Shown piece by piece: positions 18,116 through 64,000 of a DNA stretch of 64,000 nt. Under the pieces are notes generated by a model, which worked only from the letters and a program-made list of their open reading frames with translations, had not been told where the DNA came from and made no database searches. Source of the stretch: a virus; the IMG/VR virus record IMGVR_UViG_3300043438_002264, positions 32,001-96,000 of that record; one strand, given 5' to 3'. Each line of letters starts with the position of its first letter. Position 1 is the stretch's first letter. Made by a program: the position numbers and the translations under genes.

Positions 18116-18386
18116 TAGACAACCTTTTTATATCTTTTAAAGCAATTGATATATCAACTGGATTAATTAAACATTTACTACAGATTTGATCATCATTATA
18201 TATTGATAATTGCTGTTCGCAGGTTTTGCATTTTCTAACTTTTCCAGTCCTACGACTAATTCTTGAAAGCTGATACCTTTCTGCAATCTTTTCTTTGGTT
18301 GCAGCATCCCTACACCCTGGCGAGCAATATATTTGATAAGAAACAGATGTTTCAAAAGCTTCATCACACCATTGACAGTGTTTCAT
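18102..18386 (-). CDS. Cys-rich zinc-finger protein
   Basis: MKHCQWC...YCSPGC...CKTC...CSKC; start set at MKHC. Confidence 0.7.
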   Translation of the reverse strand: MKHCQWCDEAFETSVSYQIYCSPGCRDAATKEKIAERYQLSRISRRTGKVRKCKTCEQQLSIYNDDQICSKCLINPVDISIALKDIKRLSNGKD

Positions 18387-19170
18387 CCAACGACTCCAAA
18401 GATTTAATTTTAATCTCTCCAGAGCCTGCAAGATCACAAGTTGCCCGAATAGGACAAGTCTTACAAATTTTTGAGTTAGACCTATAGTTTTTCTCTGGCA
18501 GGGTTTTGTTTTCCCAAGCCTTTCTAACTGTTCTCATCCACTCAAAAGCGTTCTCTACCCACTTAAAAGAATACTCATTTAATTCTACAGGAAAAATCAG
18601 AAGTTCGTGATTGTTCTTGTTTTCATAAATAAGGATTGCCTTGCTTTTGTTTAGTACCTTCATGTAAATTAATAGCTGGATTAAGTGACCAGCTTTTGGC
18701 TTACCCGCAAGTTTACGATACTCAAAGCCTTCATTTGGCATTGTTTTAATTTCACCAAGAAGGTCTTCGTTTTCCCACTCTAGGATTACATCTCCATATC
18801 CAAAAATTGGAGGATCTGGATATGTAATTTTGAATTCAGAATTCTTTAGAATCCCTGCATCTTCCATGGCTTGCTGGATTCTTTCGTGAGACTTGGTTCC
18901 AGCTGTCATGTTTGCTCCGCCATAAGCGTCTGCATTATCCTCAAACATTGCACCCTCAAAGGCCAGGTACCAATATCTGGGACACTCTCCATGAGAATAG
19001 GCAATAGTGCTTGGGGCAAATGTCTTTTTAGTCTGGAATTTGTCTACACGTTTAACAGTATACCCAGACTTAATCTTTTCAATTAATGCTTCTTTGTCCA
19101 CAAATGATGGACGAGACATAATTTTTTCTTCTGTTTTTAACATTACTTGTTGCAATAAACTTTTTGTCAT
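18364..19170 (-). CDS. Cas4-like PD-(D/E)XK exonuclease
   Basis: CPRYWY, GTKSHE, GYGD, EIKT, QLLIY, C-terminal CxxCP...C Fe-S-type cysteines. Confidence 0.85.
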   Translation of the reverse strand: MTKSLLQQVMLKTEEKIMSRPSFVDKEALIEKIKSGYTVKRVDKFQTKKTFAPSTIAYSHGECPRYWYLAFEGAMFEDNADAYGGANMTAGTKSHERIQQAMEDAGILKNSEFKITYPDPPIFGYGDVILEWENEDLLGEIKTMPNEGFEYRKLAGKPKAGHLIQLLIYMKVLNKSKAILIYENKNNHELLIFPVELNEYSFKWVENAFEWMRTVRKAWENKTLPEKNYRSNSKICKTCPIRATCDLAGSGEIKIKSLESLDETLSMV

Positions 19171-19205
19171 TTTGAAAACTCTTTTCTATATCCTTATAGT
19201 ATACA

Positions 19206-19511
19206 CTATCTGGCAATATATTTCAAGGCGGACACTAGGTTGTTGATAGATTCTGCTGCAGTGTAATAAAGATTTTTCTTGCCCCTGTCGCTTTTATCAA
19301 CATTTGCCATCCAGGTGGCTCTGAAAGCCATTTTAGCTGCAATTGCTTGCAGTCTGACAATTTCTACAGTAACCACATTAAGTGGTATATCTGGCTTTAA
19401 TATTACTTTTGCTATAAAAGTTAAAGCGGTGTTTAATTCCTCATCATTCATATAATCAGCAATTTCTGCTAGACCATTGATTGAGTCAATCGTTGTTTGC
19501 TGCTGCTCCAT
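19206..19511 (-). CDS. Conserved helical hypothetical protein
   Basis: 101-aa ORF within the recombination block. Confidence 0.65.
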   Translation of the reverse strand: MEQQQTTIDSINGLAEIADYMNDEELNTALTFIAKVILKPDIPLNVVTVEIVRLQAIAAKMAFRATWMANVDKSDRGKKNLYYTAAESINNLVSALKYIAR

Positions 19512-20289
19512 TTTTGATCTTTCCGTGAGTGTTTGCGTCTATTCCTATTTGTAAGCCTAAATCATTGTACAAGTCCCATGCTGAGGTAAACTCTGTCCTT
19601 GTTGTTAAGTCTTTCATATGTTCCTGAATTCTGTCTGAATGGAATCTTGGGTCTAGGGGGTCTTCTCCGTTTGTGAATCTCCAGTCATCAAGTGGAGAAT
19701 AATCAAACGTAAGTATTTCACAAAAATCTCCTTCTTGCCACTCTCTTTTTGGTCTCCAGTGAACTTGATTAACTGCACTAAAAACTAAAGCGTCTCCCGC
19801 TTTTAAGGCATAGGGAACATTGTCAACATAAACGTCCCACTCAATATTTGTATCCAGGCAATAGTTAAAAGTAACAAGAGTATTTGCAGCGTCTATGTGT
19901 GGTGGTAGCGATGGAAAATACTTACCTTCTCCATACTTCATGTTGTAGTCTAGGTAACTGTAGTGACCAAGCTTAATTGGTTCTTTATAGACTGGCAAAA
20001 CATAGGAGTCCATAATGTCTTCTGCTTCTTGGGTACACTGAAACTCAATGACCATTCTTGACATGTGAGTCATAATTCTTGGATCAAACCGATCCATGCT
20101 CATATACTCTTCTTTGTCAACCTCTGCTGGTATAGAGGCTAGTGGACGATTTTCTTTTGCTTCTTCAATTATCTGCCTTAGGCCTTCTACTTGTTTTTTA
20201 TTAAAAGGCTGCTCTACATAAAATGGAACTGATAAATTAAATTTATCAAACCCAGATAAATAATCGTGCATTCCTTCTACTTTTGACAT
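19486..20289 (-). CDS. 2OG-Fe(II) oxygenase-like protein
   Basis: PSLPPHID...TFNYCL...W...ALVFS..NQVHWR; start set at MSKV. Confidence 0.75.
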   Translation of the reverse strand: MSKVEGMHDYLSGFDKFNLSVPFYVEQPFNKKQVEGLRQIIEEAKENRPLASIPAEVDKEEYMSMDRFDPRIMTHMSRMVIEFQCTQEAEDIMDSYVLPVYKEPIKLGHYSYLDYNMKYGEGKYFPSLPPHIDAANTLVTFNYCLDTNIEWDVYVDNVPYALKAGDALVFSAVNQVHWRPKREWQEGDFCEILTFDYSPLDDWRFTNGEDPLDPRFHSDRIQEHMKDLTTRTEFTSAWDLYNDLGLQIGIDANTHGKIKNGAAANND

Positions 20290-20290
20290 T

Positions 20291-20878
20291 TTAATCTTCC
20301 TCATATTTCTGGGAATAGTGTTTTGCTTTTTCTTGCATCTCTTTGGCTAAGTCTGTATCATAAGGCTGAGAATTCTTTTTTCTTAAATGAAAGAATATCA
20401 TATCAATGTAATCACTGTCAGCAAAAACCTTTTTCTCTCTCCAGTGAATCTGATGGGTTCCACTAAATGTTAAGGCAGAATTATTTGTTAGTGTAAATTT
20501 TTTATCCTCCACAACAAGTGGCCAGGTGGCGTTTCCACCAATCTGATAGTCAAAAGTAAACCTTGGTTCTGCAAATGCTGCGTCCCAATGAGGTGTTAAA
20601 TTTGGGAAAAGACTTTGTCCAGATTCTGGATCAGTAACGTTTCTATATCTAGCAAACTGATATTCTGCTATTTCTAAATCAGATTCACCAGAAATCTTTT
20701 CTGAATAATCAATTATTTTTTTTGCTACGCCATCTGGCAATTCAAAATCAGAAACGGTTTGAGCAAATAACTTCATGATATATTTTGATCTAGGATTGTT
20801 TATTGTAGAGTAAAGGATAGACATCTCGTCTTCAGTTAAAACATCTTCTACAATTACGTTTTCTTCGTTATGCTTCAT
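20291..20878 (-). CDS. 2OG-Fe(II) oxygenase-like protein (paralogue of neighbour)
   Basis: PNLTPHWD...TFDYQI...WPL...ALTFSGTHQIHWR; leaderless start MKHN 6 nt after TATAAT. Confidence 0.75.
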   Translation of the reverse strand: MKHNEENVIVEDVLTEDEMSILYSTINNPRSKYIMKLFAQTVSDFELPDGVAKKIIDYSEKISGESDLEIAEYQFARYRNVTDPESGQSLFPNLTPHWDAAFAEPRFTFDYQIGGNATWPLVVEDKKFTLTNNSALTFSGTHQIHWREKKVFADSDYIDMIFFHLRKKNSQPYDTDLAKEMQEKAKHYSQKYEED

Positions 20879-20885
20879 ATATCTA

Positions 20886-21170
20886 TTATACACCATCTAT
20901 CAATTGCTCAAGAATTGACATTTCAATAACAGCCAGCCTTGTTTTGATTCCAGATTCCCCTAAGACTACGACGATGGCTGGGTCATTACCATTTCTTATG
21001 GCATCTGTAGTTGCTTTGGCCCATACGTCTTTATTCAAAGTAAAAGATTTACTTACCTCTTTAAAGTCTATGGTAAAATTTTCCCAAGAGGCGTCCCCCT
21101 TGTGGTTCCCTCTTCCAGAATTTTTATGCTGCTTGGCCCCTAGGCGTTTGCTTTCACTTTTTTCTGTCAT
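20886..21170 (-). CDS. Small PD-(D/E)XK nuclease / Hjc-like resolvase
   Basis: E.KRLGA....SGRG..KGD......DFKE....FTL....W. Confidence 0.7.
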   Translation of the reverse strand: MTEKSESKRLGAKQHKNSGRGNHKGDASWENFTIDFKEVSKSFTLNKDVWAKATTDAIRNGNDPAIVVVLGESGIKTRLAVIEMSILEQLIDGV

Positions 21171-21333
21171 AGTCTTTTTTACTTTTCTTTACATGTAGTT
21201 TTGCTGAGCTTAAATGTTTTTCTATACACATCCAAGTTACTTCTTTTTCTTCTGCATACCATCTTAAAGACGTAACTTCTGCTTTACAAGTATGACAAAC
21301 AAACTTGCCATTAATGACAGAGTATTTAGCCAC
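21154..21333 (-). CDS. Small zinc-ribbon protein (59 aa)
   Basis: Below track cutoff: GTG start, MAKYSVINGKFVCHTCKAEV...TWMCIEKHLS...; fills the gap between recA and the resolvase. Confidence 0.7.
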   Translation of the reverse strand: MAKYSVINGKFVCHTCKAEVTSLRWYAEEKEVTWMCIEKHLSSAKLHVKKSKKDYDRKK

Positions 21334-22333
21334 GTAGCTTTTCCTTAATAGCTTCCTGAAGCTCTAGGTCTTCTCTAACACGATTTACGAAGCCATCTCT
21401 ACCCTGGACCTTTGACCCATCTGGTAGCACGTACCAGGCTCCTGTGCGTTCTACAATGCCCGCTAGCTCTGCTGTGTCAACCAAATCACCAATAGAGTCA
21501 ATGCCCAAGCGATCACCACGGAAATAGAAATCATACTCCCCAGATGCAAAAGCAGGGCTAGTCTTAGAGAACTGAATTTCCCAACGAATTTTTCTTCCAA
21601 TTTTTTCTTCAATTAATTTATCTCCTACCTTGATCTTGCCTTTGATTGCCTGATTGTCTGACTCAGATGAAAAAAGTTTAATAACAGTCGAGGAATAAAA
21701 CTTAGTAGATTGACCACCAGATGGCTGCTGACTAGTATACATAGCACTAATATTATTTCTAGACTGCGAAATAAGTAAGAGCATTGTTGGCTTAACTTTG
21801 TTATTAGCATAATTTAACATCTTCCATGCATTGCTAAAGTCTCTTGACTCAGCACCAATTTGTTTTGTATTTTCAAGTTCTTTAAGCTCATCTGTTCCCT
21901 TTTCAAAATAAATTGCTGGAAGCAATGAAGTTATAGAGTCTATAACAATTATATCAACTCCTACATTCATTAAGCTTGTTCCAACATCTACCATCTCATT
22001 AATAGTTCTTGCCTGAGAAACAATTAGGTTATCTGTATCTACTCCCATGGCTTTAGCCCATTCCTCAGAATAAGACATTTCTGCATCAATCCAAGCACAC
22101 AGCTTTCCTTCTGCCTGTGCCTGGCCAATCATCTGAAGGCACAGGGAAGACTTAGCACTAGACTTGCTTCCCCAAATAAGAACCTGCCTTCCCATAGGAA
22201 GCCCACCCAGCAGAGCACGGTTCATTCCAAAACTTGGGGTTTCTTGACGCTCAATTTTAAACCCTACGCCAGTTGATAGTCGCTTTCTAATTCTAGGATC
22301 TAAAGACGCTAGAGCTTCTTCCATTGTAGTCAT
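21326..22333 (-). CDS. recA: RecA/UvsX-like recombinase
   Basis: GGLPMGR, Walker A GSKSSAKS, WIDAE, IVIDS, GAWY. Confidence 0.92.
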   Translation of the reverse strand: MTTMEEALASLDPRIRKRLSTGVGFKIERQETPSFGMNRALLGGLPMGRQVLIWGSKSSAKSSLCLQMIGQAQAEGKLCAWIDAEMSYSEEWAKAMGVDTDNLIVSQARTINEMVDVGTSLMNVGVDIIVIDSITSLLPAIYFEKGTDELKELENTKQIGAESRDFSNAWKMLNYANNKVKPTMLLLISQSRNNISAMYTSQQPSGGQSTKFYSSTVIKLFSSESDNQAIKGKIKVGDKLIEEKIGRKIRWEIQFSKTSPAFASGEYDFYFRGDRLGIDSIGDLVDTAELAGIVERTGAWYVLPDGSKVQGRDGFVNRVREDLELQEAIKEKLRG

Positions 22334-52394: not shown

Positions 52395-53714
52395 TTATCT
52401 AAATAGATCGGCAGTTTTGAGGAAACGTCCGCCCCATAGGGATTTCTCAATCTGTTCTGATTGAGCTTCCTGTACGATCTCGCCTAGATCGCCAGACTTG
52501 CGGAAAGCGGTGTCAGCCTCAACAGCGTCCACTCTCTTTCCAAACTCGTTAAACTGTCCCTTGGCTTCTGTTACCTCTGTTTTTACAGAATCAATTGACT
52601 TGCTTAGTGCAGATACCTGCTCGTGTAGAGCTTTTACAGTATTTGCTAGATCGCTAAAGGCTGATGTTAGAGTACCCTGAATCTCAGTAACTGCATCTGC
52701 AATTACCTGATTCGACTTAGATACCTCATCCACCTCTGGTGCAGCTTCTGCCTTCATTTCATCCTCAGACTTCATTTCTTCGTCTTCGTCCATGTCGTCA
52801 GACTTCTTATCTGGATCCATAGACTTCTCTACGTCATCAGAAGAAGCTTCTGCTGCATCTTCGGTTGGGGCATCTGCCTCTGGAGCGACCTGTGACTCTT
52901 CTACTACCTCATCAGACTTCTCAACGATGTCTGCTGTGATTGTTTCTTCATTCATAGGACTTGCCTCCTTCTTAATCTCAATTGTATTAATGCCTTTAGC
53001 ACTATCAACTAAGAACTTTATCATATCTGTTTTTTCGTTATCGTTCTTTTCAACGAAACCTATATTTTGCATTGGAGCATTTGATGTAGGGCTTACCTCA
53101 GAATCATTTTCTGACAACATGACTATGCCAGACTCTGCATCCCAGAAAACATTTTCAATGGGGGTATCTAAGCTTTCGCCCTTAATCATATCTACTCCGT
53201 CAACTTTTTCGACAGACAATACATTCGCAAACTGATTTGCTGGATTATCTACTAGAGACAATTCTACCAGATCATAGTCTTTAATAATGCGAATTTTTGA
53301 ATCAATTTTTTCATCATATCCGTCATCCCATTTGTTCATCTTTCCACCGATAGAAAAGCCAGACAGAGTTCCGTCTAGAACTTTCTCCCAAGTGTTCTGT
53401 GCACCCTTTGAGATGTATGTTGAAACATAGACTCCAGAATAAAACTTTTTAGCTTCTGGATCAAAATATTTATCTTCTTTAAAAGAAATCATTTTTCCAA
53501 CTGCTGTTGGCTGATGCATTTCTCTTATGTTCCCACGAAATTTAGCAAAAGCCTTTAGGCTTGCATCTGTGGTGACTATGTCAGCTTGCTTGTCTACGTT
53601 ATCAAGTGTAGCAAATCCAGAGACAACACGTCTCTCCTTATCCACTTTAGTGAACGGCATTGATAGGCGAACGTTGTCGCCCTCTGTGTCCCAATGGGCC
53701 TTTTGCATAGTCAT
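52395..53714 (-). CDS. Prohead protease (HK97-type) fused to acidic scaffold
   Basis: REMH, GFSIGG, ELSLVD.PAN; acidic linker and coiled-coil C-terminus. Confidence 0.88.
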   Translation of the reverse strand: MTMQKAHWDTEGDNVRLSMPFTKVDKERRVVSGFATLDNVDKQADIVTTDASLKAFAKFRGNIREMHQPTAVGKMISFKEDKYFDPEAKKFYSGVYVSTYISKGAQNTWEKVLDGTLSGFSIGGKMNKWDDGYDEKIDSKIRIIKDYDLVELSLVDNPANQFANVLSVEKVDGVDMIKGESLDTPIENVFWDAESGIVMLSENDSEVSPTSNAPMQNIGFVEKNDNEKTDMIKFLVDSAKGINTIEIKKEASPMNEETITADIVEKSDEVVEESQVAPEADAPTEDAAEASSDDVEKSMDPDKKSDDMDEDEEMKSEDEMKAEAAPEVDEVSKSNQVIADAVTEIQGTLTSAFSDLANTVKALHEQVSALSKSIDSVKTEVTEAKGQFNEFGKRVDAVEADTAFRKSGDLGEIVQEAQSEQIEKSLWGGRFLKTADLFR

Positions 53715-53762
53715 GTTATCTCAATTATAAGGGCTTTTTACAAAAAAGTTACAAAAATGTTA

Positions 53763-55394
53763 CTAATTTGAAGACCTGCCCTCGCCTGCTGGATTTCTTC
53801 CAGATATTGTGGCGGGGCTATCTGAAGAGTTATTTGCTCTTTCAGAGTCTCTTGATCTATTCTGAGAAGTATTAGCTCTTGTATCGGCAGACTGTCTTGG
53901 GGACATTTCAAATGGTTCGTCCCCGTCTGGACGCTGAGGAAGACCCAGCTTTTCACGTGCCTCATTTGGAACCATAATCTGAGTCTTTACGTAACGCTCC
54001 AAAATCTGGGACTGAGCAATTTCATCTGTAAGGGTTAGCTCATTAAACTTAAAGTCTAGAATATCTGTCTTTTCTTTAACAATCTTGCTAATAATTTTTT
54101 CTAGATTTGCCTGGGCTGGTCTTGCAACCTGCTCTTTGAACGTACGGTCTTGAGCAAGTGCTGCGGCAATCTGAGAAGAATCTCCTCCACCAATCTTGGA
54201 TAGAGGAACCTGATGTGCAACAAGAATATCATCACGGTTTCTAAGGCGGTAGTCATTAAACGATGCCTCCTGAACTCCTGCTTCAATTGGTTCCATCTTA
54301 AACTCTACCTTGTTTGTATCTGTGTCAGCTGGAAGCGGGATGTACAGTGTTCTGTGAGATTGTCCCTTTAGGCTAGTCTGTAAGAATCTAAACATCTTAT
54401 CTTCTGCGTCGGAAGATAGCTTTGCACCCTTTAGCGTTACAATGTATCTAGGAACACCCTTATTTCCAAAGTAGTCAATGTTGTATTGAGAAGCTAGCTG
54501 ATCTCCATGCAAAGAAGAGATGGCAGACATGATATCTGGCACCCCATAAAAAGTATTTAATGGTGAGTATTCTTTGTAATGAATAATCTCATTTGGTCTT
54601 GGGTCTCCAGTAATTGGATTTGGATTCTTTGCCCCGAAATTTCTAAAGTATACAACCTTTTGTCCAATAATCTGAACATAGCCGTCACGCAATCTACGCA
54701 CACGCATAGTGGTTGCTGGGATGTGTCCGATATATCCAATTTCTCCAGCAACTGTTCTTCCAATTTCAAGATAACCATTTCCAGTAGCCTGCACATCAGT
54801 ATAGAACTTTGTCATTACATTTGTGAATGAATCATCACTATTAAGACTCTCTAGCCATTCCTTTAGTTCTACCTTAGCTCTTTCAATACGCTTTCTTGCT
54901 TTCTCAACCGCAGAATCGCTACTAGATGCCTCTAGCTGCATAAGAGTTCTCTTAGAAACATGGAAGTCATAACCTAAACCAACAATGTTTTCTACCTTAG
55001 CATCAATTGCTGCGTGGTTAGCAAATGAGGTATCGTAGTAGTTTGCAAGCTCGTAAAGATTCCATGGTGGGGTAATAACATCAAACATTCCGTAGCCGTT
55101 GTGGAAAACGGAACCTGGGTTTATCTCTTTAGATGTTGATCCATTTATTCCAGTGTTTCTTGCTAGAGCACTATTTTGATACCCCTGATTTGTGGTATCT
55201 ATTCCAGTAAAGTCTAGGCTTTCGTAGGACTTGGCAATGCGATCAGAGCGTCTCTTAAAGTTCTTTTCTAAGCCAGAAAGGGTTTTTAAGTCTTCCCACT
55301 TCTTCGCAAATGGATCTTGCTTTTTAAAAACATTTTCTTCTTGCTCTAACTCTGGAGCAAAAATTTGAATTGGGTACTGATAATCGTCTGACAT
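53763..55394 (-). CDS. Portal protein
   Basis: TGNGYLE, HIPA.TMR, YGVPD, YF.N.GVP, PNEARE.LGL. Confidence 0.9.
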   Translation of the reverse strand: MSDDYQYPIQIFAPELEQEENVFKKQDPFAKKWEDLKTLSGLEKNFKRRSDRIAKSYESLDFTGIDTTNQGYQNSALARNTGINGSTSKEINPGSVFHNGYGMFDVITPPWNLYELANYYDTSFANHAAIDAKVENIVGLGYDFHVSKRTLMQLEASSSDSAVEKARKRIERAKVELKEWLESLNSDDSFTNVMTKFYTDVQATGNGYLEIGRTVAGEIGYIGHIPATTMRVRRLRDGYVQIIGQKVVYFRNFGAKNPNPITGDPRPNEIIHYKEYSPLNTFYGVPDIMSAISSLHGDQLASQYNIDYFGNKGVPRYIVTLKGAKLSSDAEDKMFRFLQTSLKGQSHRTLYIPLPADTDTNKVEFKMEPIEAGVQEASFNDYRLRNRDDILVAHQVPLSKIGGGDSSQIAAALAQDRTFKEQVARPAQANLEKIISKIVKEKTDILDFKFNELTLTDEIAQSQILERYVKTQIMVPNEAREKLGLPQRPDGDEPFEMSPRQSADTRANTSQNRSRDSERANNSSDSPATISGRNPAGEGRSSN

Positions 55395-55765
55395 TAGCCT
55401 TCATCTCCGTAAGCTTCTATGGTTTTCTTTGCAGCCATAACCGCACCAATATCATTTAGTGATGGGATTAGGCCCTGTTTCATGCGATCAATCTGTTCGC
55501 TATATTCTTCATCGCTGATTCGAGCTGAGCCAGGAAAGAATACTGGAGAACCGTTTGGCTCTCCGTGATAGGCTGCTGCCTGTTTTAGCTTGGCTATTTG
55601 GTTTTCATCACCTTTGTTTGCTGGAATGTTTAGAATATTTCCGCTGCCGTCAGTAAACCATTTACCGTTAGCTTTTTTCCAGACATAAACTCCCCAGGCA
55701 TACCCTGTTTGCTCAACTAATGTTAGCTTTGCTTTACCAAGTGCTTCTGCAAATTTGTCTTCCAT
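55394..55765 (-). CDS. Conserved hypothetical protein upstream of portal
   Basis: WGVYVW...DG.GN.LNIP...EQ.DRM.QGLIP. Confidence 0.65.
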   Translation of the reverse strand: MEDKFAEALGKAKLTLVEQTGYAWGVYVWKKANGKWFTDGSGNILNIPANKGDENQIAKLKQAAAYHGEPNGSPVFFPGSARISDEEYSEQIDRMKQGLIPSLNDIGAVMAAKKTIEAYGDEG

Positions 55766-55783
55766 AACCACCAGTATACCATA

Positions 55784-58700
55784 TTATACAGCAGAAACAA
55801 CCCTGTTTTGCCATCCAATGTTCTGATAGTTTGTGTATTCATAGTTATTAATCTTTAATGGGGTATCGTCATCAATAATTATCTTATTTGTTCCAGTATA
55901 AGTTTTATAAATGTCTGCTGGGTTTACCCCAAAATATGTAGATGAAGAGAAGACCAATACGCCGTTCCAGGTATAGTCTTCATTCCAGAAATCCCAGTCA
56001 TAAACGTCTATATTATCAAACTTAGCGGTATACCAAGACCTAAGAGTTTGTCGCTGAATTTCTTGTAAATTAGTAGACTGATACTGAGAGATGTTGTTAA
56101 TTAAAACTGATCCAGTTACCCTAAATCCTCCAACATAGGAGCTAAAATCTAGCACATTTGAAAAAGATATACCTAACACACCCCAGTCATTAAGAGTAAT
56201 TACTGGCTCTCTAACAATCCTTCCATTCCAATAAAATGCAATTCCGTTTTCAAATCTACCAGTTTTAGCATTAATTCCATAAATTCTTGCACGGCTTCCA
56301 GAGGTGTCATTAGCAACTATAAAGAATTTTATGTAAGTATCTTTGCTTTCAATTTCAAAGATTTGCTCTGGAGTTGTTGGGAATCTTGCTTGACCATATC
56401 TAATAAATGCTTGAAGAGCAATTACTTTATAATTTTCTGCTAAGTTTTGATTAATAGGAATTGAAAGCCCACGGTTTACTAATGGGTCATAATTTCCAAC
56501 TTTCTCAATGCCGCTGCGTTTTGTGAGATATAAGTATGGAGTGCTTCCTTTATAGATTCTAAATGGGTTTTTAGATTTATAGTCAAAGTAAGAGCCGTAC
56601 TTTAAGTATGGAAATATAGATGTTCCAAATCTTGTTCCGACGGGATTAGAAGTTCTTTCATTAAAGGCTTGTGAAGCATACTGCATTTTCTTTACAACTA
56701 ATGGGTTGGAAATAATGCCATCAATACTCCACTCTAAGTGTGTAACAATAGAGACATCTGCTAACTTAATATTTTTTGGTGGATAGATTATTGTTCCATC
56801 TACAACCTCATACTTGGTAGTTAACCATTCATCTCCAGGACTTACTACGTTATTCTTGGGGGCAAGAGCTTTAGTAAAATAAGAGTTTTTTGCAGATGTA
56901 TTAGTTTTTAAATATTGAAATGAAACATATGATTTAACAAGGCTGCTGTCAGTATTATAATAATTACCAGTAAAGTTTTCTAATGCTGGATAATCTAAGT
57001 TAAACTGAATAAAGTCAAGATCGTAATACTTCTTATCAAAAACATCTGAAACATATTGTGCAAAATATGTTAATGGCAAGTAATCTTCCCAGTATCCATC
57101 TATGGCAATGTCCATAAACATCGACTCAAAACTTATCTTTGGAATGAGTGTGTAGCTACCAATAAAGCTATCTATAAGGTCAAAGCTAAGTTGGCTGGCA
57201 AATGAGGTTGGAGAACCGCCATCAAGCTCTTCAGTATATGCTGGGCTATTGCTAAAATATTCACTTCCCGCATCGTAAGCTATTTCTGCTGGATAATCTT
57301 CAAATACATCCTCATAATTATAATACGTAAGCAAGCCTGAATTATCAAATAAAGCTGAAATTTTTTCTAAATTTGTCTGTGTACAAAATCCAAATTTATA
57401 AATTTTTCCAGAAAATGTATTTTCAAAAGTTGCATCTCCTCCGATTGTTAAAGATAGGTTTTGCTTATTATTAAAAAATGAGGTAGCAGATTGTCCAAAG
57501 TATTTAGAGAACTTATCTATGTCAACTCCAACGGCAAGGCTTTCGTTTGCTAAAACCATTGACTCTGAATATATCGCCGAAATAGTTCCTGCAAAACTAA
57601 GGCTGTAATATAAAACATTGTTCTGAATATAGCATTCTAAATATGTGTCTTTCCTAGTTTTATCGTTTATTTTAAACAATATTTGTTTTGATGAGCTAAG
57701 GGATCCTGGCTTAAATACCCCAAAAAACCCTTTTAGATTTTCTTTAATAATGTTTATATCTTCAAATAAAAGATATCCATCTTTTCCAGTAAGCCCAATA
57801 AAAGAATCTCCCAGCTGATCGTCGTATAACTCCTCATACCAGACTTTTTGAGTCGTACCATCTTCAAATATTACCTTTGGTAGTTTATATTCTGGAACTG
57901 AGAGTGCCTCATCTTTTACTAACAGGTTTTCTACAATTGCTTGATTCCAACGGCCAATGTCTGGGTAGCTATAGTTGCTTGTATAGTCAGCAAAAGCATA
58001 GTCTATAAGAACAGAGGTTCCTCCATATGCACTGTTTGCATTTTCTGGGTATTCTACCGCCTGGCCATAAGCAAAGCGTCTTTTGGCAACAATAGCTGGA
58101 ACCAAGTATGGGTATATTGCAACACAATCAATATCTAAAAATGGAACATTCTCAGATGCATAAAATCCTAGCCAATCATTGCTTTTTGTTGTTCCGCTTT
58201 GAATAATTGTTTCTGATGCTAAAGCAACATCTGAAGTAGAAAAAGAAACTTCTATTGCCTGTTCTCCATTTATCAATAATGAAGCAGTATTTTCAGAAAT
58301 TTTAAAGTCTAAAAGCATTGGCCTGTACCACTCTGTAATCGGGTGTGCACCAACAGAATCTCCAACCTTAATCTTTATAAATGGACCATCTACGTAAATT
58401 CCATCGGCTGAGCCAATTGGCCCAAAGATCCTAGTTGGAGAAGTTGCCTTTGAGTCAATCCTTGCCCACATCTCAGCAGTGTATTCCCTATATCTTCCAG
58501 CCTCATTTAAAAATCCTTGTCCAGGAATTATCACCGATGGATCTGATCCATTTGGTAAAATTCTTGTAACGTTTGATGAACCATAAACAATTGGTACCCC
58601 AGAATTTTTTGCAGTCAAATATCCGTTATTAATAAAGTAATACCCGTCTAAATCTTGTAAGCCATATGATTTTGCAGGGATTGACAAGTAGCTAAATGGA

Positions 58701-59344
58701 ACATTGGATGGTAGGGTTTCTCCAAAAAGTCCAGGGGATGTTGCTAAAAATTCTTCTGACCACTGTCCAAAAGTAACTCCATTAACATAAAACTTATACT
58801 CATCTGGCAGGCCACCATTATTAACATGATTAATTTTTATTACCATCTTTATAGGATTTATAGTTTGGGGGATGCTAAAGGTTTCTGAAATTAAGCTCCA
58901 CCTATTGCTAATTTGAGAATCAAATTTTCTAAGAACTGGACTGGCTAACCCATCATAGGTATAGCCAATTTCATAAGAAAGCACAAATGGATTTGCAGCA
59001 AACATATAGGCACTAACAGAAAAAGTCTCTAAGTCTGCATTCATCAAAGCTGGGCTAATAATTGCAGAGCTAGTTAAAGTTATTTGATTAGTCTGCTCTA
59101 GCCCAATAACTGCTTTTACAGTGGTGGTTGAGGTAGTTGATAGTGGTTCATTCAGTATGGCCAGGTTTTGTTCTTTTGTACCGTTGGAAATTGTCCAAGC
59201 ATTGGCATCTGGAGAAGATCTATAGATATCTCTTTTTGCATCAGAAATCAGGGAAATATAGTCAGCTTGATCATCTAACGCCCACATCGCAATAGGATGC
59301 TCGCTAAAAATCTTTTCTGCGTACAGGTTTGAAGGATTGGGCAT
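55784..59344 (-). CDS. Large virion structural protein (LamG/concanavalin-like domains)
   Basis: 1186 aa, beta-rich; HPIAMWALDD, YTAEMW LamG-like motifs. Confidence 0.6.
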   Translation of the reverse strand: MPNPSNLYAEKIFSEHPIAMWALDDQADYISLISDAKRDIYRSSPDANAWTISNGTKEQNLAILNEPLSTTSTTTVKAVIGLEQTNQITLTSSAIISPALMNADLETFSVSAYMFAANPFVLSYEIGYTYDGLASPVLRKFDSQISNRWSLISETFSIPQTINPIKMVIKINHVNNGGLPDEYKFYVNGVTFGQWSEEFLATSPGLFGETLPSNVPFSYLSIPAKSYGLQDLDGYYFINNGYLTAKNSGVPIVYGSSNVTRILPNGSDPSVIIPGQGFLNEAGRYREYTAEMWARIDSKATSPTRIFGPIGSADGIYVDGPFIKIKVGDSVGAHPITEWYRPMLLDFKISENTASLLINGEQAIEVSFSTSDVALASETIIQSGTTKSNDWLGFYASENVPFLDIDCVAIYPYLVPAIVAKRRFAYGQAVEYPENANSAYGGTSVLIDYAFADYTSNYSYPDIGRWNQAIVENLLVKDEALSVPEYKLPKVIFEDGTTQKVWYEELYDDQLGDSFIGLTGKDGYLLFEDINIIKENLKGFFGVFKPGSLSSSKQILFKINDKTRKDTYLECYIQNNVLYYSLSFAGTISAIYSESMVLANESLAVGVDIDKFSKYFGQSATSFFNNKQNLSLTIGGDATFENTFSGKIYKFGFCTQTNLEKISALFDNSGLLTYYNYEDVFEDYPAEIAYDAGSEYFSNSPAYTEELDGGSPTSFASQLSFDLIDSFIGSYTLIPKISFESMFMDIAIDGYWEDYLPLTYFAQYVSDVFDKKYYDLDFIQFNLDYPALENFTGNYYNTDSSLVKSYVSFQYLKTNTSAKNSYFTKALAPKNNVVSPGDEWLTTKYEVVDGTIIYPPKNIKLADVSIVTHLEWSIDGIISNPLVVKKMQYASQAFNERTSNPVGTRFGTSIFPYLKYGSYFDYKSKNPFRIYKGSTPYLYLTKRSGIEKVGNYDPLVNRGLSIPINQNLAENYKVIALQAFIRYGQARFPTTPEQIFEIESKDTYIKFFIVANDTSGSRARIYGINAKTGRFENGIAFYWNGRIVREPVITLNDWGVLGISFSNVLDFSSYVGGFRVTGSVLINNISQYQSTNLQEIQRQTLRSWYTAKFDNIDVYDWDFWNEDYTWNGVLVFSSSTYFGVNPADIYKTYTGTNKIIIDDDTPLKINNYEYTNYQNIGWQNRVVSAV

Positions 59345-59348
59345 ATGT

Positions 59349-59364
59349 CTATTTTAACACATTA
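59349..59364 (-). promoter_or_regulatory. Leaderless promoter TGTGTTAAAAT; identical 16-mer also at 60736-60751
   Basis: CTATTTTAACACATTA on plus strand at both sites; TAAAAT lies 6 nt before ATG in each. Confidence 0.6.
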
Positions 59365-59412
59365 GAAGATTGTTTTTATTAACATGGATTGCTTTTATCA
59401 GAGAGCTAAAGA

Positions 59413-59868
59413 TTAGCATCTGACGCATTCCGCCCACATGCCACAGCTTCCGTCTGCATAGGTAGTACAAATAAACCCTCCAGTACATGAAGGCTGCTGA
59501 TATAAGATGGTGTATAAAGATGGGCAGGGTGCAGGTGCAAAGCTGAATGGTGCAAAAGAAAATGTTGTTGTTATTTGAACAGAATACGGAGACCAATCTC
59601 CTAAGCCAACTGCATTTTGTGCACGTACACGATATTTCTGGCCAGTTCCAGCTTCTTGCGATACAATAGCAGATGTGCTTACCGTTGTTCCACTCTTGCC
59701 GTCATCACTTTCCCAATAATAAAGTAAAATTGGGCTTCCTCCATTATTTGGAGCAACCCAGCTAATGTTATCTTGGTTAGCATTTGGTGAGGATACAGAT
59801 GGGGCAGATGGGGCGGCTGGGACCGTTAGACCCAATGATCCAACAAGCCCGCCTAAAATTCCGCCCAT
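59413..59868 (-). CDS. FN3-domain protein with FSFAPFSFAP motif and six-Cys C-terminal tail
   Basis: SWVAP.NGGSPI..Y, YRVRAQNAVG.G.WS FN3 signature. Confidence 0.75.
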   Translation of the reverse strand: MGGILGGLVGSLGLTVPAAPSAPSVSSPNANQDNISWVAPNNGGSPILLYYWESDDGKSGTTVSTSAIVSQEAGTGQKYRVRAQNAVGLGDWSPYSVQITTTFSFAPFSFAPAPCPSLYTILYQQPSCTGGFICTTYADGSCGMWAECVRC

Positions 59869-60731
59869 TAGGTTAGTCCACTACCAGAAACTATCCACGT
59901 AGTTGATTCTACTTTTACAGCTGTTGCTAGTCCGTATGCGGCAAGAGACCTAGTTCCTGTAAGGGAACTTCCAGCAAGCCTAAGGGTGTCAGTTGTAATT
60001 GCAATAGAGCTGGTTACGTTTCCATTTATAATAACAATAGCTGTTCCAATTTCAAACGGTACTGAAGAGTTAGCTGGGATTGTAATAGTTTGTGAAGAAC
60101 CAGTTACATAAATATGTTCACCTGCGTGAGCTTTACTTAAGGTTAATCCGCCAGAAGCAAGAATATTTTGTGGCATTCCAATATAACCAACTGATGATGC
60201 CGTGTTGGTGTTTGCAGATGGTTCAGCTGTCAAAAGACCAGACTTTGCATTTAACTGAGTTTGAATTGCAGAGGTTACGCCATCTACATAGTTAAGCTCT
60301 GTTGCTGTTGCACTAAGGGCTACATCCTCATTAATCTTTGGCGAGGTAAGTGTTTTGTTGGTAAAAGTCTCTGTTTTAGATGCAGTTGATTTATCATTTA
60401 ACTGAGTCTGTATTGAAGATGTTACCCCGTCCAAATACCCAATTTCAGTATCGGATACGTTGGTAACTTTGTCTTGCTTTGTTGATAGATCTACAGTTGC
60501 CCAGCTAGCAGCTGTTCCATCAGTAGTTAAAAACTTGCCAGAATTGCTTGTTTGAGTTGGGAGTGCTTGTTCAGAAATTGATTTTAAGGAATTCCAGGCG
60601 GTAGCCCCATCGCCTATCTTAAAAATCTTTGTATCATAAGCAAATCCAATTTCGCCAGCAGCTAAAACGGTATTTGCGGTAGACCATTGGCTGGCAGTAC
60701 CACGTCTTTGAAGCATTCTGTATAGGGTCAT
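59868..60731 (-). CDS. Tail-fibre-like protein (Mtd-N/hyaluronidase-N type start, internal repeats)
   Basis: QRRGTASQW...N.VLAAGEIG...KIGDG.TAWNSL; two TE(I/L).Y(L/V)DGVTS.IQTQLN repeats; C-terminal TIP.N.SV.F.IGT...W.VSG domain. Confidence 0.75.
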   Translation of the reverse strand: MTLYRMLQRRGTASQWSTANTVLAAGEIGFAYDTKIFKIGDGATAWNSLKSISEQALPTQTSNSGKFLTTDGTAASWATVDLSTKQDKVTNVSDTEIGYLDGVTSSIQTQLNDKSTASKTETFTNKTLTSPKINEDVALSATATELNYVDGVTSAIQTQLNAKSGLLTAEPSANTNTASSVGYIGMPQNILASGGLTLSKAHAGEHIYVTGSSQTITIPANSSVPFEIGTAIVIINGNVTSSIAITTDTLRLAGSSLTGTRSLAAYGLATAVKVESTTWIVSGSGLT

Positions 60732-60756
60732 GTTACTATTTTAACACATTAAAAGA

Positions 60757-61356
60757 TTAAAATCCTTTTATTTCCCAGTCATCCCAATTTGTGGCTTCGT
60801 AGTCTACCCCAGGCATCCAGGCTTTTCCAACCTTACCTACCCAGGCTTCCGAAAGAAATAGGGGGCTATCTTCAATTGTGTTAATTCTATATCTATTTTC
60901 TTCATTTTCAACAAAAAAGATTAAGTCGCCTGATTCTAAATTAAAAGTTTTATCCCATCCTGGAAAGCTAATAGATCCTCCATTAAAGTCATCGTTCCAA
61001 TAAATGTAGGATTTATAGGTTCCTTCTGGCTTTTCTGGGTCAAACTGTGGGCCTAGGCAAGTGCCTGGCTTATACCTTGCAATATAGTGTTTTGAAAACA
61101 TTGGGGGATGGTATTCATCATTTTCTATACTCTGAACGTTCTCGTAATATCCCTTAGAGTATTTTGAAAAAATTTCTAATATATCATCTGGCATTTCTCC
61201 ACGAGTATGCAAATCAAAAACAGCATTGTTTTTTTCAAAAAGCTCATTGTGAAGCGGTACGTGATCTTCTTTTGTATTAAACTTAATTGACTTAATGTAA
61301 TCCTGAACAATTTTTACATCTTCTGGAGATATAAACTGTTTTACTAAATGTATCAT
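60757..61356 (-). CDS. 2OG-Fe(II) oxygenase-fold protein with degenerate iron ligands
   Basis: IYWNDDFNGGSISFP...GDLIFF is retained, but HxD reads QFD and the distal His region reads NRYRI. Confidence 0.7.
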   Translation of the reverse strand: MIHLVKQFISPEDVKIVQDYIKSIKFNTKEDHVPLHNELFEKNNAVFDLHTRGEMPDDILEIFSKYSKGYYENVQSIENDEYHPPMFSKHYIARYKPGTCLGPQFDPEKPEGTYKSYIYWNDDFNGGSISFPGWDKTFNLESGDLIFFVENEENRYRINTIEDSPLFLSEAWVGKVGKAWMPGVDYEATNWDDWEIKGF

Positions 61357-61502
61357 TTAAAGCTCATTCTGCTGCCATGAGAACGATTGTCTGGGCCGCA
61401 GGAGGTACAGGAAGAAAGCTTAGCCCCTGTAACGGGACAAGATTCAACAACTTTTTTATGATTAAACAAAAAACATTTTAAATTTTTAATAAAATTATGC
61501 AA
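61353..61502 (-). CDS. Small Cys/His zinc-finger-like protein (49 aa)
   Basis: Below track cutoff: TTG start overlapping upstream stop; MHNFIKNLKCFLFNHKKVVESCPVTGAKLSSCTSCGPDNRSHGSRMSFK; ATGA overlap with next gene. Confidence 0.65.
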   Translation of the reverse strand: MHNFIKNLKCFLFNHKKVVESCPVTGAKLSSCTSCGPDNRSHGSRMSFK

Positions 61503-62148
61503 GAGGTATCCAATGCTGTTCTTGTGTCATGCCAATTTCATTTTGAAGTCCCCTAAGAGGTAAGACATCGTAGGCAACGCTTATTCTTGGACCTTCCCAA
61601 TCCCAATCGCCCATTGCGTGTGGATGCCCCATTTCTGATAAAATTGCACGATTATTTTTATTATGATTTTCTATTTTTTTATCAAAAGTGACGTAATGGG
61701 TGACAGATGGCTCTGCCGAAACACAGTAATATCCATGAAAAAATGGAGCACCCTCTGCTCCGTGATCGTGCCAATCAAGTTTTCCTTTATGAGCTTCATT
61801 AATATTAAACCAGCCCTGAAGCATAAATTGCTGTTTCTCAAAGTCTATATCGTAGTAATCGCAGGCTTCGTGAACCATCGTAGATATTCCATCATAAAGT
61901 TTTCTAATTCCATCAATATGAAATTGAAAAACATTATACTCTCTCCACTTAATTGTAGAAAGGCTATTAGACTCTAGCCAAAGTTCTTGGTCATGAATTT
62001 TTGTGACTCCAGGAACTTCGATTTTTTTTATTTGCATATATCGGTCTACAAGCTCTCCTGAAAGTTGCTCTAAATCATTTTCTAAAAATATATCAAAAAA
62101 TTTATGTGGTTGTGTAGATTTGCTTACGCTTTTAATTTCATTATCCAT
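61495..62148 (-). CDS. 2OG-Fe(II) oxygenase-like protein (TIGR02466-like)
   Basis: GWFNIN...WHDH...FHGYY...HPHAM...PRISVAYD. Confidence 0.75.
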   Translation of the reverse strand: MDNEIKSVSKSTQPHKFFDIFLENDLEQLSGELVDRYMQIKKIEVPGVTKIHDQELWLESNSLSTIKWREYNVFQFHIDGIRKLYDGISTMVHEACDYYDIDFEKQQFMLQGWFNINEAHKGKLDWHDHGAEGAPFFHGYYCVSAEPSVTHYVTFDKKIENHNKNNRAILSEMGHPHAMGDWDWEGPRISVAYDVLPLRGLQNEIGMTQEQHWIPLA

Positions 62149-62206
62149 ATTTCATGCCCTTCTTTTACGATAATTTTGTATAATAATTATACACTATAAA
62201 GTTTTA

Positions 62207-63562
62207 TTAGCAAGCAATTATGTCGCCAGCTATAAAGGTATTGTCTCCGTCTGGCGTAATTAAATAAACAGTTTCCTCAATATTATCAAGAATTTGAACA
62301 TCTTCAATAAGTACCTCTTCGAATTCTTCTTCCAAAGGGTTGTACTGCATAACTATATCTCCAGCAGCAATTGTGCCAGTTATTTCCCAAGCAAAAGTTT
62401 CAGTACCCTGTTTTTTTGCAAGAATGGGCTGAAGTTTTGAAAAGTGCTTTTTTGCATCAGAATTAAAAATTATTGTGTCTGTTACAACTTTAGAGGAAAT
62501 GTCTTTTACATAAGCAAAATTGTGTTTAAGACTAGTTATCTGCTTATAAAAAACTTTTTCATGTTGATAGTCTAAATAGTCGTCGACATCAAACTCTTCC
62601 CAAATAGGACAGATTAGTTTATCTCCAATTTTAAGGTCTTCAGCTGCAACAAGAACAACCTCAAGGTAGTCATTTATTGTAGATATTTTAGTTTTTGATG
62701 CAATGCAGCTTGGAGCAAATCCAAAAGCCCTAAATGGGGCAAATCCAAAAGCATTAAAAGGATAGAAGTAAAATGGAGAAAAACTAAAAGCCATAAAAGG
62801 AGAAAAACCAAAAGCATTAAACGGTGAAAAGCCAAAAGCCATAAAAGGAGAGAAACCAAAAGCACTAAACGGTGAAAAGCCAAAGGCTCCAAAAGGAGAA
62901 AAGCCAAAAGCTCCGAATGGAGCAAAAGAAAATGTAGTTGTAATAGAATTGGATGCTGCAGAAGCTAGAGAGTTTCCATTTGCATTAATAGCATAAACGG
63001 TATAAGTTTGTGCTGTAGCTGCTTCTTGGTTTACAGTAACAGAAAGGTTAGCTGTTGGTCCACCTCCTGGAGTACCTCCAGCAAGGTTTGTCTTGCCATC
63101 AGAGGCTGTCCAAATATATCCTGTAATAGTTTTTCCGCCAGTATTTGGTGCAAGCCAGACAACTACGTCTTGGTTTGCATTTGGAGAAGACGCTGTTGGA
63201 GCTGCTGGAGTCGCTGGAACGGTAGTGATTAGTGTAGCTGTGGATGGATCACTGGGGGCACCTTCATCGCCTTCGCTATTAAATCCTGTTACAGTAAAAG
63301 TATATAAAATATTTGACTTAAGACCTGTAATAATTATTGGAGAAGAAGCTCCAGTGGCAGTTACGGTAGTTTCTCCAGCACTTGCCGCATAAATTTTATA
63401 GGAAACAGCTAGGTCTACAGAACTAAATTCAACAACTGCAGAACCATTGTCAAAAGGTCTATCTGTTCCTACATCATTTGCTGTTGGTGGACCTGGTGGT
63501 AGTGGAATTAGGAAATCATTTGCCGCTAGGGACTTTCTACCAGTTCTTTTACTTACCGCCAT
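62207..63562 (-). CDS. FN3-FN3-(xAFGFSPF)n-Hint domain protein
   Basis: Two FN3 signatures, Phe-rich octapeptide repeats, then CIASKTKI...AEDLKIGD...TVY.I...NTFIAGDII Hint signature. Confidence 0.8.
   Translation of the reverse strand: MAVSKRTGRKSLAANDFLIPLPPGPPTANDVGTDRPFDNGSAVVEFSSVDLAVSYKIYAASAGETTVTATGASSPIIITGLKSNILYTFTVTGFNSEGDEGAPSDPSTATLITTVPATPAAPTASSPNANQDVVVWLAPNTGGKTITGYIWTASDGKTNLAGGTPGGGPTANLSVTVNQEAATAQTYTVYAINANGNSLASAASNSITTTFSFAPFGAFGFSPFGAFGFSPFSAFGFSPFMAFGFSPFNAFGFSPFMAFSFSPFYFYPFNAFGFAPFRAFGFAPSCIASKTKISTINDYLEVVLVAAEDLKIGDKLICPIWEEFDVDDYLDYQHEKVFYKQITSLKHNFAYVKDISSKVVTDTIIFNSDAKKHFSKLQPILAKKQGTETFAWEITGTIAAGDIVMQYNPLEEEFEEVLIEDVQILDNIEETVYLITPDGDNTFIAGDIIAC
62708..62933 (-). 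repeat. Degenerate 24-bp tandem repeat encoding xAFGFSPF
   Basis: FSFAPF GAFGFSPF GAFGFSPF SAFGFSPF MAFGFSPF NAFGFSPF MAFSFSPF YFYPF NAFGFAPF RAFGFAPS; synonymous codons vary between copies. Confidence 0.9.
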
Positions 63563-63577
63563 CAGTTTTTCTCTCTA

Positions 63578-64000
63578 CTAAGCTTCTAGGTCTCCGAATA
63601 GCACCCAGCTATTTCTAGACCTCTTAAATATTGTACCAGATGACCACTTAGTTCGTAGCTTATTTCCTGGAGTAAAAGCTAATCCAACCTTAAAAGTTAG
63701 TGTACCAGAAACTTGATCAGAAAACGGAGTATCTACTGTTACTTCTGTTCCATTTGTACTAACTACTAAAGTTCCTGGAACAATTCCAGTACCAGAAATT
63801 CCCTGTCCAGCTTCAACGTTTAAGTTTTGTGCTGAAAGAGTAACGGTTATTCCACTAGATGATCCTCCAGAACCATAAGTGGAGGTTGTAATTGGACTTG
63901 AGGTGACAGTAACTTGTCCAGAATTAGCTTGTAGAACATCTAAAGATGAACCTATTGGAAAATCTACTTCCTGGTCTGTTGGAATAGTTAGAACAATTGG
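63578..64000 (-). CDS. C-terminal part of a fibre-like protein (start outside window)
   Basis: Not in track: ...LTIPTDQEVDFPIGSSLDVLQANSGQVTV...TPGNKLRTKWSSGTIFKRSRNSWVLFGDLEA*. Confidence 0.75.
   Translation of the reverse strand, partial: PIVLTIPTDQEVDFPIGSSLDVLQANSGQVTVTSSPITTSTYGSGGSSSGITVTLSAQNLNVEAGQGISGTGIVPGTLVVSTNGTEVTVDTPFSDQVSGTLTFKVGLAFTPGNKLRTKWSSGTIFKRSRNSWVLFGDLEA

Follow-up and report, generated by a model that had tools for sequence, protein, structure and literature searches.

The 64,000-nucleotide window analyzed here (bases 32001-96000 of IMGVR_UViG_3300043438_002264, a 124,540-bp IMG/VR virus record with direct terminal repeats) carries near its end a gene for a protein of 451 amino acids (aa) in which an FN3 region is followed by a Phe-rich repeat tail and a C-terminal Hint domain. 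The gene is preceded by a tail-fiber-like gene and followed by genes for an oxygenase-like protein of 217 aa (hereafter F217), a Cys/His mini-protein, a degenerate homologue of prolyl 4-hydroxylases (P4H), a second tail-fiber-like protein and an FN3 paralogue (Table 1). All these open reading frames (ORFs) are located on the minus strand exactly where an earlier note on this DNA, made from the sequence alone, had placed them. The picture that emerged from our comparison with related phages is that of a real and conserved module that is built from known parts and is apparently unpublished; the window contains a Phe-rich, PF13759-like variant of it with a non-canonical Hint domain, and its function is predicted.

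Table 1. Features of the Hint protein locus and related genes in the window (2OG, 2-oxoglutarate; DSBH, double-stranded beta-helix)
Feature	Coordinates	Strand	Remarks
451-aa protein, whole ORF	62207-63562	-	
aa 1-210: N-terminal peptide (MAxxKRxGxKSxAxNDFLxP) and FN3 region	62933-63562	-	N-terminal peptide conserved in 17 aligned homologues
aa 211-285: Phe-rich repeat tail	62708-62932	-	ten units, mostly xAFGFSPF
aa 286-451 and stop codon: Hint domain	62207-62707	-	Cys286 is residue 1; block B S-K-L-Q; ends GDIIAC
F217, 217-aa DSBH (2OG-oxygenase-like) protein	61495-62148	-	distant PF13759 relative
49-aa Cys/His mini-protein	61353-61502	-	C-x4-H ... CP.T ... C-x2-C
199-aa degenerate P4H-like protein	60757-61356	-	
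287-aa second tail-fiber-like protein, Mtd_N	59868-60731	-	Pfam Mtd_N 5.7e-11; PHROG tail-fiber families
151-aa FN3 paralogue	59413-59868	-	short FSFAPFSFAP tail, Cys-rich end; fn3 below cut-off
Tail-fiber-like protein, C-terminal 140 aa	63578-64000	-	upstream of the 451-aa gene; continues past window end; ends ...WVLFGDLEA
Canonical P4H-like protein	7140-7748	-	H-D-H-R intact (hmmalign to P4H profile)

The repeat tail starts with FSFAPF, continues with six 8-mers of the xAFGFSPF type and a YFYPF unit, and ends with two further 8-mers; Phe accounts for 28 of its 75 residues. In agreement with the earlier note, the 8-mers open with G, G, S, M, N, M, N and R, respectively, and the array ends as ...GFAPS|CIAS, i.e., directly at Cys286, residue 1 of the Hint domain. 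Tandem Repeats Finder reports a 24-nucleotide period with about six copies and 78-79% matches, and the eight 8-mers share a mean pairwise identity of 75% at the DNA and 77% at the protein level. The statement that codons differ between units holds for Gly, Ser, Pro and Ala, which use two to four codons each, but not for Phe, which is encoded by TTT in 25 of 28 cases; synonymous variation between the units is modest. For comparison, FN3-repeat proteins were picked by regular expressions from related loci (labeled L###, e.g., L003 and L090), yielding 134 ORFs and, after removal of duplicates, 103 distinct proteins. As a homologous tail occurs at the same position in all 103, the array is not a chance feature. 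In L003 and L090 the tail is 85-86% identical to that in the window (aligned units), and among the relatives the units drift freely in length and type (FGFSPF, PPFF, YN-rich, AP-rich), without conserved cleavage sites.

Ahead of the tail, residues 54-109 match Pfam fn3 above its threshold (E value (E) 6.2e-8, 33.2 bits versus a 25-bit cut-off). The earlier note had counted two FN3 domains. The second one falls short of direct detection, and we infer it because residues 110-220 share 55% identity with the 151-aa paralogue, which is itself a sub-threshold fn3 match (22.4 bits, 1.5e-4). The FN3 part shares 79% identity with its counterpart in L003 and 82% with that in L090, and its ratio of non-synonymous to synonymous substitution rates (dN/dS) is 0.12-0.15.

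The proposal that the C-terminal domain adopts a Hint fold beginning at the Cys behind the repeat was borne out by structure prediction and profile searches, since the profile, the AlphaFold2 model and the Foldseek results all match inteins, bacterial intein-like (BIL) domains or Hedgehog proteins. A 17-sequence domain profile retrieved the KlbA intein (1.9e-7), the RadA intein (4e-7) and a BIL domain (7e-4) from the PDB. The AlphaFold2 model scored 93.3 in the predicted local distance difference test (pLDDT) and 0.88 in predicted template modeling (pTM). With it, Foldseek found 44 PDB matches at E <= 0.001, and those listed all belong to the Hint type, namely to inteins (from 1.5e-6), BIL domains (Tetrahymena BIL2 at 4.8e-6, Clostridium 2lwy at 1.4e-4) and Hedgehog (1at0 at 9.1e-5, template modeling (TM) score 0.64). 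As a single-sequence query against PDB sequences, the domain gave no match, and Pfam Intein_splicing remained below threshold on the 451-aa protein (17.6 bits versus a 35.8-bit cut-off, E 0.048).

In the domain, the candidate nucleophile Cys286 is the very first residue. The T-x-x-H motif of block B is absent; in its place stands S-K-L-Q, and in alignments with the KlbA and RadA inteins its Ser pairs with their Thr and its Gln with their His. Behind the domain, neither a C-extein nor a +1 nucleophile is present, and, as a terminal His-Asn is lacking as well, the sequence excludes protein splicing. No sterol- or adduct-recognition region was found, as nothing follows the Hint domain. N-terminal cleavage at Ser285|Cys286 is predicted and plausible; it is unproven because both the block-B His and the terminal His-Asn are missing.

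The family to which this domain belongs is small. When the last 166 residues of the 451-aa protein were compared by HMMER with 1.84 billion representative proteins, only 38 matched at E <= 0.001, and nearly all of these matches finish within a few residues of the protein C-terminus. In each full-length member retrieved, the first Cys is immediately preceded by a low-complexity stretch that is aromatic or Pro-rich (FGFSPF, YN-rich, PPxFF or FPFFPDF, and Ala-Pro-rich in two cases), while the N-terminal parts ahead of repeat and Hint vary from FN3 and PASTA domains to large proteins. Pfam Intein_splicing is recognized at E <= 0.01 in 20 of 28 family members. A collection of 103 distinct Hint ORFs gave the following distribution of key positions. 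Cys occupies position 1 in 65 ORFs and Ser in 21, leaving 17, mostly fragments, without an assigned residue 1; at least six aromatic residues are present among the 30 residues before the junction in 83 of the 86 located junctions. The block-B His position is occupied by Gln in 54, His in 36 and Glu in 13 (S..Q 54, S..H 22, T..H 14, S..E 13). Close to the C-terminal end, 58 ORFs have an HN that is followed in the relatives by only one to five residues, and 31 are devoid of an H-N/R/K/D motif there.

Two pairs of capped proteins and two unusual forms were noted among the relatives. One Hint sub-type combines Ser as residue 1 with Lys at position -1 and S-P-x-H in block B (L050, L059, L068, L072, L085, L097-L105) and extends 14-29 residues past the domain (...LTHDG..., ...GLTFDGYPT...). 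Some phages encode two Hint-capped repeat proteins (L010:10001-11476 and 20090-21466; L012:9929-12811 and 18017-19324), each gene standing behind a fiber-like gene; one of the two products is of the FN3 type, and the other carries PASTA domains or an N-terminal part of 960 aa. The predicted protein P0038 (283 aa) starts with the N-terminal half of an F217-like protein and continues in frame through an FN3 end and a short FG repeat into a Hint domain; it may have arisen by chimeric assembly or by recombination between the two neighboring genes.

The Hint domain is dispensable in this family: it is present in 53 and absent in 50 of the 103 distinct FN3-repeat proteins. Its presence or absence changes at least 16 times on the tree (shuffled labels: mean 34.7, minimum 29). 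The Hint-less proteins stop 0-12 residues past the repeat, for example with ...GFSPSY, ...FGVFGFR or ...NWYNCPGPC. That they end right after the repeat is our strongest argument for considering an FN3 protein with a free aromatic tail as the probable working form and the Hint as a putative removable cap. Separately, some Hint-less tails (L017, L019, L020) finish in a short Cys motif (...NWYNCPGPC, ...NWYGCAGWC).

The genetic environment of the repeat gene was surveyed in two sets of loci. One was picked by F217 and consists of the best 80 of 414 relatives plus L003 and the window, i.e., 82 loci; the other was picked by the FN3-repeat protein and is therefore unbiased as to enzymes. The gene neighborhoods of PASTA-type and large Hint proteins were covered at L010-L013. 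Locus ORFs came from simple longest-ORF pruning, and the seeds of the hidden Markov models comprised 10 sequences for P4H, four for DUF6065-like proteins, three for sulfotransferases and one each for Asp-hydroxylase, ribonucleotide reductase and N-acetylglucosamine (GlcNAc) transferase; repeat labels on P4H genes in the locus listing are false positives of the aromatic-content filter. The order in the F217-picked set is: fiber; FN3-repeat protein with or without Hint; optionally a sulfotransferase or an Asp/Asn hydroxylase; one to three F217 genes; optionally a class II ribonucleotide reductase; zero to two P4H genes; a protein of about 1200 aa; one of about 127 aa; and the portal. The repeat gene is always behind a fiber gene and lies 0-2 genes upstream of F217 in 81 of the 82 loci, the last one being cut at a contig edge.

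The co-occurrence of oxygenases with the repeat protein, as anticipated in the earlier note, lies far above the local background in the related phages. In the repeat-picked set, 44 distinct repeat genes have three or more genes downstream; for 42 of them, an oxygenase-like gene occurs among the first three, and for 29 it comes immediately next. By contrast, only 5 of the 290 genes that occupy the nine positions upstream are oxygenase-like. The same measure gave 58/58 downstream and 0/267 upstream for the F217-picked set. This adjacency holds across repeat-protein identities from 34% to 85%, with enzymes that differ in copy number and type. It is thus gene order that links the oxygenases to the repeat and makes the tail their candidate substrate.

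Enzyme type also appears to vary with repeat type. Relatives with Pro-Pro-Phe-Phe repeats (L005, L006, L007, L012 and others) are followed by four to eight P4H paralogues and DUF6065 genes. Among the 85 of 103 proteins with at least six downstream genes (the other 18 were dropped), the raw counts are F217 with fewer than three P4H genes in 44 of 46 FG-type loci and at least three P4H genes in 35 of 39 Pro-Pro-type loci. We consider this co-variation suggestive, not established.

Further genes join the block in some relatives. The space between the Hint protein and F217 can be occupied by a sulfotransferase gene (PF03567, 1.5e-7) or by one for an Asp/Asn beta-hydroxylase (PF05118, 3.7e-11), and in many relatives a class II (B12-type) ribonucleotide reductase of about 676 aa (L024:8487-10517) lies between the F217 and P4H genes. 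Such modification genes in the block behind the Hint protein were seen at L024:6224-6949, L037:5729-6965, L087:8399-8998 and L011:4614-5471; they include another sulfotransferase match (PF00685, 2.3e-6) and a weak one to a Skp1-type GlcNAc-transferase (PF11397, E 0.002, below the cut-off).

The first neighbor in the window, F217, had been described as a 2OG oxygenase, and AlphaFold2, Foldseek and the ESM Atlas agree on a predicted DSBH fold of the 2OG-oxygenase type. The AlphaFold2 model (pLDDT 80.9) is matched best by 2rg4 (6.8e-6) and 3bvc (2.9e-5), each with a TM score of about 0.6 and both uncharacterized marine bacterial proteins which we take to be members of PF13759; further matches include ThoJ, FtmOx1, prolyl hydroxylases and, weakly, the collagen prolyl hydroxylase of PBCV-1 (vCPH, 2.5e-3). 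In the ESM Atlas, the nearest named clusters are viral and carry PF13759 (score 0.96). The likeness to PF13759 is confined to language-model features and fold: F217 retrieved no Pfam family at E <= 0.1 and did not reach the PF13759 gathering threshold. Searches of PDB sequences with F217 or the 199-aa protein alone, or with a profile of the F217 family, returned no match, and tblastn gave a weak hit to a hypothetical protein of Synechococcus phage S-RSM4 (22.6% identity, 4e-4). F217 has at least 931 homologues, and no Pfam domain occurs among the 120 listed. All 16 aligned sequences share H127, H129, H138, E146, H175, H177 and R188; the pattern H127-x-H129, H175-x-H177, R188 lacks a canonical H-x-D, and some of these residues may bind metal.

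The second neighboring oxygenase had been called degenerate, and the 199-aa protein is indeed a degenerate P4H homologue. It matches no Pfam family itself at E <= 0.1 and is 29% identical (E 8e-18) to a 174-aa protein in L004 that belongs to PF13640 (1.3e-10). Its catalytic positions read Q-D-Y-L versus H-D-H-R in active relatives, and the 2OG-binding Arg is kept in none of 21 distinct orthologues, as compared with an intact H-D-H-R in 46 of 48 other P4H-like genes. The canonical P4H-like protein encoded elsewhere in the window could possibly act on the tail in trans, and two further PF13640 genes are found in the same genome before the window. The 49-aa protein, possibly a zinc ribbon, has no match in Pfam or PHROG; tblastn detects it in 56 of 158 loci, where it invariably follows the last F217 gene directly.

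The fiber gene upstream of the Hint protein has a conserved C-terminus (...TPGLKLRTQWSSATLFKR..W..GDLxA) and precedes the FN3-repeat gene in related loci; its full-length homologues begin with an Mtd_N domain (L004, 678 aa, 7.3e-13). This gene position suggests that the 451-aa gene product is a fiber-associated structural appendage, which may be displayed on the virion near the fiber. A complex prediction for the 140 C-terminal residues of the fiber and the N-terminal 120 residues of the 451-aa protein gave no answer (score 0.00) and is evidence neither way. The 151-aa paralogue and the 287-aa fiber protein form a second pair of fiber and FN3-tail genes (59413-60731), of which the fiber gene is absent from the corresponding place in L003; fiber-repeat pairs are duplicated in L053 and L120 as well. 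The C-terminus of the paralogue is a 40-residue Cys-rich stretch with seven Cys. An 1186-aa protein encoded at 55784-59344 on the minus strand has no Pfam or PHROG match, and most related loci encode a counterpart of about 1200 aa in the interval that separates the oxygenase block from the portal.

The portal, a 543-aa protein identified by Pfam and PHROG scans, shares 47% identity with its counterparts in Streptomyces BE-cluster siphoviruses (Stanwilliamsviridae), and the phage appears to be an uncultured, lake-type relative of these viruses. An actinobacterial host is likely because of this resemblance and because some relatives of the Hint protein contain PASTA domains. Among GenBank phages, neither tblastn with the 451-aa protein nor megablast with positions 53000-64000 gave a match.

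Taken together, we tentatively propose that the locus specifies a fiber appendage with a Phe-rich tail and an optional, self-removing Hint cap, and that the neighboring enzymes modify the tail; for this reading as a whole, the chances seem to us somewhat less than even. Cys286 would attack the carbonyl of Ser285, and the N-to-S acyl shift would generate a thioester that would be hydrolyzed or resolved by a small nucleophile. Upon departure of the 166-residue Hint, an FN3 protein ending in the Phe-rich tail would be left, the same end product that would be encoded directly by the Hint-less homologues. The Hint would thus serve as a removable cap that might, e.g., hold the very hydrophobic tail soluble until assembly. 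The tail would probably be hydroxylated by the downstream block, consisting of F217, the Cys/His protein and the pseudo-P4H, and in relatives the sulfotransferase, Asp/Asn beta-hydroxylase and active P4H genes could provide for further modification.

A number of observations weigh against this proposal. No Pfam threshold is reached by F217, whose metal ligands and activity are predictions, and the sole P4H-like gene in the block of the window is degenerate. The block is not purely a modification operon, because a ribonucleotide reductase gene sits inside it in many relatives. All synteny stems from one phage lineage, so that a single ancestral arrangement could explain the link to the oxygenases. 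When repeat and enzyme types were corrected on a tree of the N-terminal parts, six independent contrasts were left, too few for adequate statistical power; about three of them went the expected way and none the opposite (p about 0.25). As to the Hint domain, Gln is found at the block-B His position and the protein ends with ...GDIIAC and a stop codon instead of His-Asn. The block-B His is required for Hedgehog autoprocessing, and as it is absent here, the copy in the window may show little or no cleavage. The Hint part also diverges faster, with 51% and 36% identity to L003 and L090 versus 79% and 82% for the FN3 part; its dN/dS is unreliable with dS saturated or, versus L003, undefined. Finally, it is gene position that points to a location on the virion.

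It has to be considered that the oxygenase-like genes are unrelated to the repeat protein and, in line with other orphan 2OG oxygenases of phages, target host proteins, nucleic acids or small molecules, their adjacency being merely the inherited order within a variable island between fiber and portal. The ribonucleotide reductase in the same island, the additional P4H-like genes far from the locus, the restriction to one lineage and the lack of significance after phylogenetic correction all fit this explanation, as does the interpretation of the tandem dioxygenase arrays of cyanophage Syn9 as secondary-metabolite enzymes in the pertinent section of PMC2938197. On the other hand, inherited order alone does not readily account for an adjacency that survives such wide divergence of the repeat protein while enzyme number and type shift, or for oxygenase-like genes that are near-universal downstream and rare upstream. 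Enzyme type follows repeat type in the raw counts, and genes inserted immediately behind the repeat gene encode protein-modifying enzymes, namely the sulfotransferase and the Asp/Asn hydroxylase. We regard unrelated oxygenases as doubtful, albeit a possibility to be taken seriously. It is unlikely in our view that the Hint is dead or very slow in the window and persists as a folded C-terminal cap or structural domain, a relic of a self-cleaving module. The S-x-x-Q block B, the lack of a terminal His-Asn and of a C-extein, the fast evolution of the domain and the variability of catalytic positions across the family would all agree with such decay. However, Cys or Ser is kept as residue 1 in 86 of 86 located junctions, the Gln variant is conserved as the family majority and does not look like random loss, the ORF is still open and encodes a confidently predicted fold, and the Hint-less homologues end at the junction as expected if the mature form lacks the Hint. 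Moreover, inteins without the block-B His can still activate their N-terminal junction.

The earlier note had also envisaged octapeptide units that are cut into modified peptides, in the manner of ribosomally synthesized and post-translationally modified peptides (RiPPs): the units would be cores that are tailored and excised, with the Hint releasing the array. Short repeated units next to tailoring-type enzymes are in keeping with this idea, and so is the appearance of ThoJ, a non-heme monooxygenase that tailors a RiPP, among the structural matches of F217. Nevertheless, this part of the note found no support, and we consider it highly improbable. Pfam and PHROG scans of the nine proteins revealed no peptidase or transporter family, and no peptidase, leader-recognition or export gene lies within 59413-63562; the would-be leader is a conserved 210-residue FN3 structural part that is always encoded behind a fiber gene and bears the repeat as its tail, and the freely drifting units offer no conserved cleavage sites. 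A further variant starts from the same thioester at the end of the hydroxylated tail but lets it be resolved by an amine or hydroxyl group of another molecule, such as the upstream fiber protein, a cell-wall amine or a lipid, which would make the Hint a protein-ligation device. This seems to us quite improbable, and with equally little confidence we note that such a reaction would covalently tether the heads (FN3, PASTA or large Ig-like proteins) in a Hedgehog- or BUBL-like manner, the modified tail acting as a sticky adhesive spacer.

Irrespective of these alternatives, genes of the 2OG-oxygenase-like type, including the PF13759 "cyanophage" type, are among the commonest unexplained genes of aquatic phages, and a distant PF13759 relative tied by gene order to a simple, repetitive and easily expressed tail offers a concrete candidate substrate for orphan phage oxygenases. 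In addition, a small Hint subfamily of 38 representative clusters is now defined, which has a conserved Gln at the block-B His position and always caps an aromatic low-complexity tail on phage fiber-region proteins. Should the Hint cleave, it would provide a natural C-terminal tag that removes itself by non-canonical chemistry; should it ligate, this would represent a new way to build virions.

Aromatic repeats capped by a Hint domain in phage fiber-region proteins did not turn up in a full-text literature search (supplementary files not covered). In the passages concerned, PMC3556154 and PMC5259590 mention inteins only in terminases, the part of PMC7824862 that deals with 2OG- and Fe(II)-dependent dioxygenase (2OGFeDO) clusters does not mention Hint, and none of the searched-for terms occurs in PMC6802176. 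The nearest prior idea that we found is that of dioxygenase and sulfotransferase operons, together with the cyanophage Syn9 dioxygenase array, in sections of Iyer et al. (2010) (PMC2938197).

The known systems that come closest share individual parts with the locus. Classical inteins, represented by the Pho RadA and Mja KlbA mini-inteins, provide the best profile and fold matches, and their terminal His-Asn recurs in 58 of the 103 family members. Here, however, there is no C-extein or +1 nucleophile, no insertion into a conserved host protein and no homing endonuclease. BIL domains, which act on their flanking sequences by cleavage or ligation, and the Tetrahymena BUBL BIL2 (PDB 2lwy, 6y75, 6tmm) resemble our domain in the endonuclease-free Hint fold, the occurrence in variable surface-type proteins and Cys as residue 1. 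In contrast to them, the phage domain sits at the extreme C-terminus without a C-flank, has S-x-x-Q in block B and, in the window copy, no His-Asn; it always stands behind an aromatic repeat and is phage-encoded beside a fiber gene. The Hedgehog autoprocessing domain (1at0) is likewise a C-terminal Hint on an N-terminal functional part and removes itself through a thioester at Cys1, whereas here a sterol-recognition extension and the block-B His are lacking and no acceptor molecule is known. As regards the enzymes, PF13759 (2OG-FeII_Oxy_5) "cyanophage" proteins are the best fold matches and nearest named Atlas clusters of F217, which differs from them in its H-x-H ... H-x-H pattern and forms a separate family of at least 931 proteins below the Pfam threshold. 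The P4H of chlorovirus PBCV-1 goes along with Pro-rich repeats of that virus and thus sets a precedent for a virus-encoded hydroxylase with a repetitive protein as its proposed substrate. For bacterial operons, the relevant section of Iyer et al. (2010) (PMC2938197) predicts in silico that co-encoded tail-collar or collagen-like proteins are hydroxylated and then sulfated. Compared with both, the locus described here combines a Phe-rich repeat containing one Pro per unit with a PF13759-like candidate enzyme, a degenerate local P4H and a Hint cap.

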